This document shows, piece by piece, positions 4,561-14,364 of a stretch of 16,504 nt of DNA. Numbering within the stretch: the stretch's first letter is position 1; each line of letters starts with the position of its first letter. The position numbers and the translations under genes were made by a program. The stretch comes from a virus, in IMG/VR virus record IMGVR_UViG_3300031853_000538. One strand, written 5' to 3'. Below the pieces are notes generated by a model, which was given only the letters and a program-made list of their open reading frames with translations, did no database searches and was not told the origin of the DNA.

Positions 4561-7500
4561 ATGGCAAATCAAATTAAATATGATGTTAAATTTAATGTTG
4601 ATACTGGCTCGCTTAATCAATTAAAATCTTCATTACAATAGATAAAAAAATTAGATATAAAAGATGTAATGAAAATTAATAATAGTGATATGTCAGCCGC
4701 ACGTGATACATTAAGATCAGTACAAGAAGATGCAGAAAAAGTAGAAAAAGCTTTGAGCCGAGCTTTCAATACTAAATTAAACACTCTTAATATTGCTACT
4801 TTTAATAGAGAGTTATCTTCAGCAAATTTAAGTATTGATAAAGTTCAACAATCTTTTAGTAGAATTGGAGTAACTGGCCAGGCAGCGTTTAATAATCTTG
4901 CTACTGATATTTTGAATACTAATGTTCAATTAAGACAAAGTAGCAAGTTATTGGATGATATGGCAGTATCAATGGGTAATACTATTAAATGGGGTATTAC
5001 TTCTAGTATCTTTAATACCATGACAAGCTCTATTCAAAAAGCGTATTATTATGCTAAAGACTTGGATAGATCTTTAACTGATATTAGGATAGTTACTGGT
5101 GACAGCGCAAATTAGATGTAGAGATTTGCAAAAGTTGCAAATACTGCAGCTGGCGATCTTGGTAGATCTACTCTTGATTATACGAAAGCCGCATTAACTT
5201 TTTATCAACAGGGTTTAGGTCAGCAAGATGTTCAAGCTAGAACTGAAGCTACTTTAAAAGCTGAAAATATTACTGGCATTGGATAGGAAATGGCAGATTA
5301 TTTAACTGCTGTTTGGAATGGCTTTAATGTTGGGGCGCAAGATGCCGAGAAATATGTTGATAAACTTGCGGCTGTTGCTGACAGTACCGCATCTAACATG
5401 GGGTAGTTAGCAACTGGTATTAGTAAAGTAGCATCTGCCGCAAATAACGTTGGTGTCAATATTGATCAATTAACTGGTCAAATTGCTACTGTTATTGCAA
5501 CAACCAGACAAGCGCCAGAATCTGTTGGTGTTGCTTTTAGAACTATTTATGCTAGAATTAATGATATTAAAGCAGGGACGGATGAGGCATAGATTAGTTT
5601 AGGTAATTATTCTGGAAAGATGGCCGCGTTAGGATTTAATGTTCTTGATGCTACTGGTCATTTAAGAGATACCGGTTAGGTTATTGAAGAAATTGGTGAA
5701 AGATGGCAATCTTTGACTAAAGAGCAACAAATTAATCTTGCTCAAGTAATGGCAGGTCAAAGACAATATAGCAATTTAATTTCTCTTTTTGATAACTGGG
5801 ATAAATATTTACAATCTGTTAATACGTCTTTAAATTCTCAAGGCACATTAAATGAAAAAAATGATAGGTATTTAGAGAGCCTTCAAGCACATATGCAATA
5901 GCTTAGTACAGAAGCTGAACGTACCTATGATATTTTATTTGATGAAGAGGCTGTTAAAGGTTGGGTTGATGCTTTTGACGGTGCTTTAAATATTTTTAAT
6001 GATTTTATTGAAGGTATTGGTGGTGGAAATACTGCTTTAGCTTACTTTGGATCATTAATTGCAGGTATTTTTAATAAACAAATTGTTCAAGCGGTACAAG
6101 GAGCGGCTGCAGAAATTGATAGGTTAAAAGCTAATCTTGGATCTGTTGCAGCAAAACAAGAGATTATTGATAAAATTAAATCTGGTTTACAAGTTACTTA
6201 TGCTGGTCAAGGACAACAACTTGGTAACAATGCTTTAACTTTGCAAGCTTAGGCTGCATAGAAAACTTTATCTGTTCAACAGGGTTTGACAGCAGAACAA
6301 CAAAAGCAATCAGTATAGATTCAAAAACAAATTGGATTAACTCAACAAAATATTGATGATTTATAGCAAAAACAAAAAACCGCATAGAATATTGTAAAAG
6401 CCTTAGAACAAGAATAGGCTATTCAAGGAAGAAGTGCGGCTCTTTTGTAGAATGATAGAATACAACTTCAAAATAGTTATGATATTAATCAAAAGAGTTT
6501 AATGGCTATGCAAGCTATGGAAGGAAGTTTTGAAAAACTTTCTTCAGGAGCTTTATCTTATCAATAGCATTGGAATACTCAACTTAGCTTATTAGATCAA
6601 ATTAATAATGAAACAGATAATTTAAGAGACGTTTGGATTGCAGCTGGATTAGAAGAAAGTGAATTTGATAGAAATTTAACAATAATAAAATAGGGCATTG
6701 CAGATTCAAATACAGAAACAGAAAAATTTAAAAATGCTTGGGAATCTATAAAAAATGTTACTCAAAATTATGCTAATTCTCAAAAAGCAGATTTAGAAAA
6801 AATAGATCAATATTTATTAAATATTGGAATAGATACTTCTAAATTGACAGAAGAGGAAAAAAAGAGATTAGCAATTTTGTTATAGCAAAATGATGCTTTA
6901 GCAGAACAAGGAAAACATACTTTAAATCTTCAAAATATTGTTCGAGGTCTTTCTTCAGCTGGGCAAATTTTAACCTCTTGGGCGGGGGCTGCAAAAACTT
7001 TTGGCGATTAGTTAGCAACTGCATAGCAAAAATCTAATGCATTAGTTTCTGGGCTTCAAGGAACTATAATGGGAGTAGGTTCATTATTTGGTCCTATTGG
7101 TATGGGGATTGCTACTTTAACTAATGGCGTAATTTCATTTTTTAAAGAAGCGACTCCAATGGGAGACTGGTTAGAAGAAAAATTTAAAACTACTCAAGAA
7201 AGAATTGATGATATTAATAATGCTCTTAATAAAGTAGGAGATAATGATAGAACAAAAAATGCTCAAATTAGTAGTTTAGAAGCATTAGTTGATGAATATG
7301 ATAAATTATCAAGTAAGGCAGGAGAATATGGAGTAAATTTAGACACTTTATCTCAAGAAGAACAAGATAGATATCATTAGATTACAAATGCTTTTGCAGA
7401 GTATAATAGTGCTGTTATAGCTGGCTATGATGACCAGGGTAACGCCATTGTAAAAGGACAAGACGCATTAAGATAGACTATTGAAGTATTAAGACAAGCA

Positions 7501-13500: not shown

Positions 13501-14364
13501 TTAGATGATATGGCTCATACTGCAGGAATTGATTTAACAGATGTTAGATCTGGAGTCGATGAATTATCCATGTCTTTTTAGAATCTTATTATGGATAATG
13601 ATGAATTAATAAATCGTATGTTCCAAGAAATTAGCGCAATTCAAGAATTAAGAATGGAAGCTTAGATGCTAGTAGCACAATATCAAAATGTTTATTAGTC
13701 TGCATTACAAGCGGCATCTGCAATACATGAATTTATTCAAGCTCAAAGGGCCCAAGCTGCTGCTCAAGCGGAAATGATGGCTGCAATGCAACAACAAGTA
13801 GCTGCTCCAGCCGCACCGGCCCCAGCATCATCTTCATCTTCCGGCGGAGGAGGGAAAAATAAGAATAAAGGCACTCTTTGGGTTAAAAATGCTGATTCTA
13901 TAACTCTTGAAGATGGAACTTAGGTTATAACAGAACCTAATAAATGGTATAATTTAAACACTGGTTAGCAAGAAAATCCTCCAAAAAATAAAAAAAATAA
14001 AAATAAGAAAAATAAGAGTTCTAAATTCGATACTGGTGGATATACTGGAGATTGGCATTCTTCTGAAGGTAAATTCGCTGTGCTTCATGAAAAAGAATTA
14101 GTATTAAATCAATCAGATACTAAAAATCTTTTAAATTCTGTTTCAATTTTAAGAGATCTTGCTAATAATGCTCAAATTAATGTAGCTTCTAAATTAGGAG
14201 ATTTAGGATCATTTAGTAATTCTATTTTTGAAAATAAAGATACAATAGAACAAAATGTACAAATTTCTGCAACCTTCCCAAATGTTAATAGTAAACAATA
14301 GATTGAAGATGCATTTAATGATTTAATTAATCTTGCCGCGCAGCGCGCAATGAGAAATAGATAA
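4561..14364 (+). CDS. Giant phage tail tape-measure protein, about 3267 aa, translated with TAG as a sense codon (about 87 in-frame TAG), terminating at TAA
   Basis: Every frame-1 ORF in the supplied track (4669, 5713, 7069, 8053, 10369, 11893, 12640, 14080) lies in one frame. Each is bounded only by TAG. I walked the frame codon by codon and found no TAA or TGA until TAA at 14362-14364. The ATG is at 4561, after SD AAGGAG (4543-4548) and an upstream in-frame TAA at 4531-4533.
- The N-terminal region, about 4700-5600, has the TP901-family TMP core pattern: '...AVADSTASNMG[TAG]LATGISKVASAANNVGVNIDQLTGQIATVIATTRQAPESVGVAFRTIYARIND...'.
- There are two hydrophobic helix-like segments: 'ALAYFGSLIAGIFNKQIV' (about 6040-6100) and 'MGVGSLFGPIGMGIATLTNGVISFF' (7069-7143).
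- The body is long, alpha-helical and rich in E/K/Q/L.
- The C-terminus carries the conserved TMP motif 'FDTGGYTGDWHSSEGKFAVLHEKELVLNQ' (about 14023-14109). Confidence 0.85.
11116..11295 (+). repeat. Low-complexity Gly/Lys-rich linker inside the TMP (SGGNSGGSSPSGKSGGGGGGRKGGGGGGKKGGGGKGKKGSGSGK, then [TAG]K[TAG]LKEK[TAG]KKEKHED)
   Basis: A run of GGN/AAA codons visible directly in the sequence. There is no frame disruption. A second low-complexity stretch, AAPAAPAPASSSSSGGGGKNKNKG, lies at about 13801-13872, and PKNKKNKNKKNKSSK at about 13981-14025. Confidence 0.7.
13270..13377 (+). repeat. Tandem 54-nt (18-aa) in-frame duplication within the TMP: NYQQMSDEKKAILMEEVA / NYQQMSDEEKRIFMEELV
   Basis: Two adjacent copies, 13270-13323 and 13324-13377, share about 80% nucleotide identity in phase with the reading frame. 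Tape-measure genes commonly contain such periodic repeats. Confidence 0.7.

Follow-up and report, generated by a model that had tools for sequence, protein, structure and literature searches.

The 16,504-nt stretch of viral DNA IMGVR_UViG_3300031853_000538 from IMG/VR (in its entirety referred to as the window, to which all coordinates refer) very probably contains, at 4561-14364 on the plus strand, one single late gene encoding the tape-measure protein (TMP) of a large siphovirus-like phage, in which 87 in-frame TAG codons are translated; this assessment does not extend to the amino acid encoded by TAG, which is discussed separately. The TMP frame starts with an ATG at 4561 and ends with a TAA at 14362-14364, and no TAA or TGA occurs earlier in its 3,267 codons, whereas the two remaining frames of the same interval contain 145 and 445 of these codons. 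An open run of this length can, therefore, not be attributed to chance. The initial annotation, which was made from the sequence without database searches, had proposed a single gene without an overlooked in-frame TAA or TGA and with TAG read through, and both proposals are substantiated by the comparison with related loci (drawn from IMG/VR and GenBank and designated with L-numbers).

Uninterrupted TMP reading frames under the standard code are present in L007 (3,287 aa), L008 (3,299 aa), L009 (3,040 aa), L002 (2,939 aa), and Enterococcus phage VRE9_4 (2,673 aa), and the window TMP is colinear with such frames at its N-terminus, central module, C-terminal module, and C-terminal domain. The uninterrupted state of the gene in these standard-code relatives indicates that the TMP frame is one gene and that TAG is a sense codon in it. 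Furthermore, the TMP of L012 (JGI 3300012007; 3,256 codons, 88 TAG) is 95.9% identical to that of the window, and 80 of the 87 TAG positions are common to both. The two genes differ at 502 nucleotides, 66% of which are at codon position 3, the largest class of differences in 7 out of 8 bins of 450 codons. With two thirds of the differences at third positions, purifying selection on the TMP frame is indicated. One of the bins (window 7261-8610, i.e., aa 901-1350) shows only 6 nucleotide differences, compared with 50-114 in the others, which suggests a recent recombination between both lineages inside the TMP gene.

Homologue searches with shorter TMP queries only matched fragments of 97-911 aa, because the source databases had called the relatives with the standard code or because contigs were short, and megablast with the entire window as query yielded no match among 50,697 phage records. 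Public gene callers break the TMPs of this family, which is abundant but has been poorly annotated, into pieces of 100-900 aa and, consequently, most database entries for this TMP family are wrong. The gene described here provides a clean test case for annotation that is aware of recoding.

The identification as a TMP with a TP901-type N-terminal core, as originally proposed, was confirmed by matches to TIGR01760 (tape_meas_TP901) at aa 154-454 (97 bits, cutoff 28.8), Pfam PF10145 (PhageMin_Tail) at aa 195-399 (E=1e-25; 91.2 bits, cutoff 33.2), and the PHROG TMP families phrog_4211 and phrog_34405. The conserved C-terminal motif noted earlier (GGYTGDW...HEKELV) was also recovered, and in the form FDTGGYTGDW...LHEKELVLN it is near-invariant across 50 aligned homologues. 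The phage very probably belongs to a group that comprises Phass-1, the Enterococcus phages EF1 and VRE9 and, more distantly, the Bacillus Tsamsaviruses. It shares with the Phass-1-related group (NCBI ‘Caudoviricetes code 15 clade’) a homologous TMP of ~3,000 aa and in-frame TAG codons in late genes, and a suppressor tRNA(CUA) is encoded on the contig of its closest complete relative. The siphovirus type is indicated by the gene order upstream of the TMP of L007, which matches that of VRE9_4, and no sheath family was matched. The TMP of a further relative, L005 (IMGVR_UViG_3300028797_000166, TMP at 9947-18091), contains 9 in-frame TGA codons and no TAG, and shows 50% identity in the core and 32.5% in the C-terminal module; hence, one TMP family is found in standard-code, TAG-recoded, and TGA-recoded phages.

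As for other TMPs described in the literature, the protein would be present as an extended oligomer inside the tail tube, where it would stop tube polymerization at a length proportional to its own, i.e., ~0.45-0.5 µm. The C-terminal helical module, ~1,000 aa, ends in the conserved 110-aa domain, which would presumably be located at the tail tip. The 87 TAG codons would be translated via a phage suppressor tRNA(CUA) such as that of the closest complete relative, the 133.9-kb contig (IMGVR_UViG_3300021399_000007) to which L003 belongs and which carries this tRNA at 1532-1607 of L046. The restriction of TAG to plus-strand late genes would fit the published idea that recoding gates the translation of late genes. 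Several points weigh against this reading. No suppressor tRNA(CUA) was found inside the window, and the one invoked comes from a relative with 72% identity in the TMP N-terminus. The phage is known from its sequence alone. Neither a major tail protein nor a recognizable chaperone lies beside the TMP gene in the window, both upstream open reading frames (ORFs) being small and unassigned. Finally, a contribution of 0.15 nm per residue may not apply to the ~140 non-helical residues and the compact central module, so that the predicted tail length is approximate.

The initial annotation regarded the length of the TMP as exceptional and as one of the extremes known so far. This is not supported by a comparison of TMP lengths. 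A search with the last 91 TAG-free residues against 1.84 billion cluster representatives retrieved 2,209 representatives at E<=1e-3. Among the best 150 of these matches, 66 are at least 2,000 aa long; their median length is 2,838 aa, the longest has 4,362 aa, and 4 of the 66 reach at least 3,267 aa; the long homologues that were checked have both the N-terminal core and the C-terminal module in common with the window TMP. TMPs of 3,149, 3,150, and 3,209 aa with TAG read-through have been reported for three related Phassvirus genomes (PMC10607447), and that of Thermus phage P23-45 is as long as 5,002 aa (PMC10770324), while the tail of P74-26 is nearly 1 µm. The size is, therefore, ordinary for the family, and as a TMP the protein represents a type that is already in the literature. 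The suggestion of a tail of about half a micrometre seems fair. Bacillus phage Tsamsa (TMP 3,123 aa, tail 440 nm; PMC3903500) and Bacillus phage Izhevsk (TMP 3,116 aa, tail about 430 nm), the only two phages used for this calibration, give 0.14 nm per residue and thus about 455 nm for a TMP of 3,267 aa; the classical factor of 0.15 nm per residue would yield 490 nm. We would, accordingly, predict a tail of about 0.45-0.5 µm for this uncultured phage of about 134 kb. No electron microscopy or tail-length data for the Enterococcus (VRE9) and Enterocloster (PMBT10) phages were found in the papers surveyed.

The meaning of the 87 TAG codons is the only feature that could be truly new. Initially, the gene was translated with table 15, in which TAG encodes glutamine (Gln). 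That TAG is a sense codon stands; Gln was not confirmed, and several tests point to glutamate (Glu). We consider the chances that TAG encodes Gln to be about even. In that case, the Glu-like signal described below would arise because the TAG codons came mainly from GAG. The precedent is clear, since all published TAG reassignments in phages, including that of the related Phass-1, are to Gln (PMC10607447; PMC9523058; 10.1101/2021.08.26.457843), which equally argues against Glu. In the comparison with L012, TAG is exchanged with CAA/CAG at 5 of 87 sites, a proportion similar to that of synonymous CAA/CAG exchanges (18 in 214), although exchanges with GAA/GAG are also 5 in number. However, Gln would require a Q content of 9.2%, above that of all 70 homologues examined, and an E content (7.0%) two standard deviations too low, while the CAA/CAG codons by themselves already sit at the family norm. 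Moreover, most TAG codons should then have arisen from CAG by synonymous transition, yet the TAG columns of the alignment are not Q-like.

To the possibility that TAG encodes Glu in this lineage (the window, L012, and L003/L004), which would give a normal Glu/Gln balance, we assign slightly less than even probability. It was examined with a column profile built from 70 uninterrupted homologous TMPs, in which 38 of the window TAG columns could be aligned; a first version of this test, with fragment homologues, was biased because the fragments end at TAG, and was redone with the uninterrupted ones. For the CAA/CAG, GAA/GAG, AAA/AAG, and GAT/GAC codons of the window, the best-scoring amino acid in this profile is in each case the one encoded, and the TAG columns score almost as the GAA/GAG class (E -1.7, K -2.3, Q -2.4). 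E is favored over Q in 33 of the 38 columns, with a summed log-likelihood ratio of 26 nats (bootstrap 95% interval 17.6-34.4), and the mean difference between E and Q per column is 0.68 for TAG, 0.82 for GAA/GAG, and -0.17 for CAA/CAG. Likewise, 25 of the 27 TAG columns of L003 favor E (19.6 nats). Strongly E-conserved columns are occupied by GAA/GAG (5), TAG (3), and CAA/CAG (0), whereas Q-conserved columns hold CAA/CAG (8) and no TAG. As a positive control, the TGA columns of the code-4 relative L005 came out as Trp (n=2).

Amino acid composition provides a second line of evidence. The 70 homologues contain 9.3±1.1% E and 6.5±0.8% Q. The window TMP matches this with TAG read as Glu (E 9.7%, Q 6.6%; z 0.4 and 0.0) but deviates with TAG read as Gln (z -2.0 and +3.2), and L003 and L004 behave like the window. 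The opposite is found for Phass-1, for which the suppressor tRNA was typed as Gln in the original paper: its composition fits Gln (E 9.2%, Q 7.9%; z -0.1 and +1.6) rather than Glu (E 12.7%, Q 4.4%; z +3.1 and -2.5). Furthermore, of the 25 exchanges involving TAG between the window and L003 in the putative tail gene that follows the TMP gene, 10 are with E and only 1 is with Q. However, the column test also leans toward E and K in Phass-1 (+12 nats) despite its Gln-type tRNA and part of the signal is, therefore, a bias; sites that were ancestrally Glu or Lys may be preferred for the emergence of TAG. Thus, neither the columns nor the composition are those expected for code 15, but this result is statistical, at the level of sequence and not of protein and, given the bias of the column test to E and K, should be seen as a lead and not as proof. 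The major capsid gene could not serve as an independent test, since in 25 related loci it has no in-frame TAG.

The suppressor tRNA of the lineage also bears on this question. The tRNA(CUA) of L046 adopts a cloverleaf fold in which the acceptor helix comprises 8 bp. Placed in the canonical register, this tRNA shows C1-G72, A73, and U11-A24, unlike the Gln-like UGGGG...G73-CCA layout of the Phass-1 suppressor. Among the isotype profiles it scores best with Glu (34.4 bits), followed by Ser (33.6 bits), with Gln outside the top four, although this evidence is weak, since the margin is small and the home-made classifier (with masked anticodon) has a cross-validated accuracy of 73%. A nearest-neighbor search did not discriminate, with at most 67% identity to several isotypes. 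In the same cluster as this amber suppressor, ARAGORN called a tRNA with anticodon UUA (L046 2898-2972), which would read ochre TAA. The genes of this genome end in TAA. The UUA tRNA matches all isotype profiles poorly (at most 13 bits) and may be a pseudo-tRNA. Of 113 distinct phage amber-suppressor tRNAs with the GGTCTCTAAAACC anticodon arm (L014-L133, IMG/VR), a set biased by the GGTCTCTAAAACC search pattern, 44 are nearest to tRNA-Trp profiles and 9 to tRNA-Gln, which would fit an origin of phage amber suppressors from tRNA-Trp(CCA) by one anticodon change.

We are not aware of any phage or bacterium with a reported reassignment of TAG to Glu, and we know of TAA/TAG encoding Glu only in peritrich ciliates (NCBI table 30). 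As to a possible route we can only speculate that, in a host that produces its Gln-tRNA via GluRS and GatCAB, the suppressor tRNA could receive Glu from GluRS and escape amidation because the U1-A72 mark is missing. If TAG indeed encodes Glu, about 2.7% of the residues in code 15 translations of this lineage are wrong, and phage stop-codon recoding would have at least two independent amino acid outcomes in one related group, in addition to the TGA-recoded relative.

The TMP consists of five parts, i.e., the TP901-type core, a fast-evolving helical middle, a compact module, a Gly/Lys linker, and a C-terminal helical module with its domain (Table 1). The sequence is predicted to be mostly amphipathic α-helix: a hydrophobic periodicity of 3.5-3.67 residues exceeds the 95th percentile of shuffled sequences in 61% of the 63-aa windows (5% expected), though this is a crude sequence statistic and not a dedicated coiled-coil predictor, and only 39 residues (1.2%) of the whole TMP are Pro. 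For the C-terminal helical module, which has a 3.5-residue periodicity, blastp against L005 gave 32.5% identity over aa 2238-3263 (E=5e-141). The hydrophobic segment in the middle part has counterparts at aa 820-1087 in the TMPs of relatives. For the central module, which has a homologous region in L003, L001, L007, L005, and L008, an AlphaFold2 model based on an alignment of only 5 sequences predicts a compact helical bundle with beta hairpins (pLDDT 84-94 per 10-residue block for aa 1939-2098, pTM 0.60), for which no fold match was obtained in the PDB (best E=0.46). The monomer model of the C-terminal domain is of low confidence (pLDDT 60) and uninformative. In sequence searches of the PDB the N-terminal core had no match and the C-terminal profile only retrieved spurious designed TIM barrels. 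Lytic transglycosylase, M23, or lysozyme domains, for which the initial annotation suggested a scan, are not among the Pfam and NCBIfam matches of the protein, and neither are other enzymatic domains. The TAG-free region at aa 1909-2229 was considered as a foreign insert or an internal early product, and this idea was dropped; the region is Gln-poor (permutation test P=0.02).

The low-complexity parts of the TMP had been put forward as inserts that provide a substrate for length variation. The Gly/Lys linker noted earlier is indeed present and is disordered in the AlphaFold2 model. However, a Gly-rich linker occurs at the equivalent position in L003, Phass-1, and L007, and a compositionally similar one in Izhevsk and Tsamsa, although it is absent from the TMPs of L005 and L008. 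This recurrence indicates that it is an architectural element and not an insert. The Pro/Ala/Ser and Lys/Asn patches were also recovered, as a Pro/Ala/Ser and poly-G patch (aa 3080-3097) and Lys/Asn runs (aa 3098-3103 and 3141-3153). The only three indels relative to L012 (1, 1, and 9 aa) all fall inside aa 3095-3143, within these patches, which partly supports their role as a length substrate, but they amount to just 11 residues. The tandem duplication of 18 aa noted earlier is a recent one, with relative P0183 possessing a single copy and an exact 18-aa gap relative to the window. The low-complexity indels and the duplication represent about 11-18 residues, or 2-3 nm, and the large differences in TMP length within the family stem from the helical middle. 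In a survey (2026), homorepeats were found in 95.5% of TMPs and proposed as length tuners (PMC13585406).

Alternatively, the linker may be a cleavage or hinge site and not a length tuner, with the TMP being processed at or near it into parts of ~245 and ~118 kDa. The shared position of the linker in several relatives would agree with this, and so would the TMP of Izhevsk and Tsamsa, which has a Pro/Gly/Ser linker at aa 2250-2336 that divides it into 246 and 92 kDa, the Tsamsa virion showing its TMP as two bands of 280 and 100 kDa (PMC3903500). We nevertheless regard processing as rather unlikely: the Tsamsa authors ascribed both bands to instability or modification (PMC3903500), the linkers are alike in position and composition only, and the evidence is taken from other phages, that of the window having been read from sequence alone.

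The TMP gene is, as noted earlier, the main carrier of TAG and holds 87 of the 101 in-frame TAG codons in the called ORFs of the window (26.6 per 1,000 codons vs. 19.4 for the next gene). None of the four minus-strand genes at 172-3823 contains TAG, and neither does the 93-aa ORF at 4042-4323; the plus-strand genes thereafter do. This limitation to plus-strand late genes fits the published pattern of late-gene recoding (PMC10607447). Although standard-code ORF calling splits the TMP frame into pieces of at most 293 aa, as public pipelines did for the relatives, the idea that it represents several genes with TAG as a genuine stop, or an assembly or frameshift artefact, is refuted as far as the sequence data reach and has a negligible probability, given the absence of TAA and TGA over 9.8 kb, the homology to uninterrupted proteins of 2,900-3,300 aa that spans every TAG, the TAG positions kept in L012 with mostly third-position divergence, and the TAG-free minus-strand genes. 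The major capsid gene of 25 related phages (L134-L158) contains no in-frame TAG, and L149 (IMGVR_UViG_3300021400_000126, a 133-kb contig) has a TAG-free capsid gene despite a suppressor tRNA that is 82% identical to that of the window lineage. Recoding does, therefore, not affect all late genes equally.

Table 1. Features of the tape-measure protein gene and adjoining plus-strand genes in the window.
Feature	Position (nt)	Strand	Remarks
Small upstream genes	4042..4323; 4338..4529	+	93 aa, no TAG; 63 aa, one TAG, own ribosome binding site (RBS); conserved in L003/L004
Shine-Dalgarno-like AAGGAG	4543..4548	+	12 nt ahead of TMP ATG; direct sequence reading
TMP gene	4561..14364	+	3,267 codons + TAA; 87 in-frame TAG as sense
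N-terminal core region, about aa 1-600			69% identical to L003; standard-code and TGA-recoded relatives 37-50% identical
TP901-type tape-measure core, aa 154-454	5020..5922	+	TIGR01760, PF10145, PHROG
Variable, fast-evolving helical middle, up to about aa 1927			Includes the segment in the next row
Hydrophobic Gly-rich segment, aa 831-861	7051..7143	+	Kyte-Doolittle scan; sole membrane-like stretch
Conserved central module, aa 1928-2175	10342..11085	+	Predicted compact helical bundle, then Pro-containing beta-rich stretch
Gly/Ser/Lys low-complexity linker, aa 2176-2240	11086..11280	+	Joins N-terminal two thirds to C-terminal module
C-terminal helical module, aa 2241-3075	11281..13785	+	Common to L005, L009, L008, Phass-1
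Recent tandem duplication, 54 bp (18 aa)	13268..13371	+	NYQQMSDEKKAILMEEVA / NYQQMSDEEKRIFMEELV; TRF 1.9 copies, 86% matches
Pro/Ala/Ser, poly-Gly, Lys/Asn low-complexity patches, aa 3080-3155	13798..14025	+	Small-indel hot spot
Conserved C-terminal domain, aa 3156-3267	14026..14361	+	Motifs FDTGGYTGDW...LHEKELVLN...FPNV...IE.AF
Terminator-like hairpin, 14 bp	14374..14407	.	GC-poor, T/A runs on flanks; 10 nt past TMP stop
Next large gene, runs off window	14650..16504	+	12 in-frame TAG; 51% identity to L003, 32% to L005

A pair of genes for a tail assembly chaperone with a programmed frameshift is common, but not universal, before the TMP gene. The two small ORFs directly upstream in the window were considered as such a pair and rejected, as they are separate genes without overlap, each with its own RBS, the second with its own ATG. 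The 93-aa protein has no Pfam or PHROG match, and the 185-aa ORF located just upstream of the TMP of L007 (with a similar one of 186 aa in Phass-1) is absent from the window. The large gene that follows the TMP gene also has no family match (Pfam, PHROG), but it is kept at this place in the relatives and corresponds, by position only, to an annotated tail protein of VRE9_4. Between the TMP terminator and this gene, a 53-aa ORF with one in-frame TAG (14422-14583, plus strand) resembles by eye small XkdX-type phage proteins, without a Pfam or PHROG match.

At 819-3311, the minus strand contains a gene, without in-frame TAG, for a protein of 830 aa that is homologous to the major vault protein of eukaryotes (Pfam MVP_shoulder, E=3e-23) and has no PHROG match. 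Its codon usage (CAG 25 vs. CAA 2) differs from that of the TMP (CAA 188 vs. CAG 26), and it is 96.5% identical in L003, while the adjoining TMP core shows only 69-72% identity. Among the 50,697 phage records, vault homologues were only detected in LR756500, LR756501, and LR756503 (huge phages of 462-735 kb), with 36-37% identity. Two other minus-strand genes are TAG-free, as expected of early genes: one for a 68-aa protein (521-727) resembling the RecBCD inhibitor gp5.9 of T7 (PF25708 23.2 bits, just below the cutoff; phrog_6234 E=4.5e-7) and one for a 141-aa HD-type phosphohydrolase-like protein (3398-3823; phrog_990).

Of the systems known, the Phassviruses (phAss-1 OQ749652, BK046881, and BK025033; PMC10607447) share with the phage of the window a genome of about 133-136 kb, a TMP of 3,149-3,209 aa with many in-frame TAG codons (110 in Phass-1), a suppressor tRNA(CUA) in the genome, and a homologous N-terminal core, central module, Gly-rich linker, and C-terminal domain. 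However, the N-terminal core shows only 29% identity, the gene neighborhood upstream of the TMP and the suppressor tRNA are different, and the Glu/Gln composition points to Gln in Phass-1 and to Glu in the window. The Enterococcus phages VRE9_1-4, EF1, EF5, and H1 (about 134-142 kb; phrog_34405) possess a TMP of the same family, with 28% identity over aa 1-545 in addition to the C-terminal module and domain, but it is shorter (2,673 aa) and encoded in the standard code, and their head-tail gene order (a phrog order shared with L007) is not found directly upstream of the TMP in the window. Tsamsa and Izhevsk (Tsamsavirus) resemble the window in the TP901 core (27% identity), the C-terminal domain (36%), and a non-helical linker approximately two thirds along a TMP of 3,116-3,123 aa. 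They are isolated siphoviruses with measured tails of 430-440 nm. They differ from the window in that they use the standard code, the middle of their TMP cannot be aligned, and the core begins about 490 residues later. P23-45 gp96 and the P74-26 TMP, which were compared by description, are also TMPs of great length that determine the size of an equally extended siphovirus tail, but they are larger still (5,002 aa, tail nearly 1 µm) and have a virion RNA polymerase at the N-terminus as well as a metallopeptidase domain, while no enzymatic domain was detected in the window TMP. Finally, the code 15 phages (crAss-like, Lak, and others) have, like the lineage of the window, in-frame TAG confined to late or structural genes, a suppressor tRNA(CUA), and TAG-free early genes; in those phages TAG encodes Gln, whereas the TAG positions of the window are statistically Glu-like.

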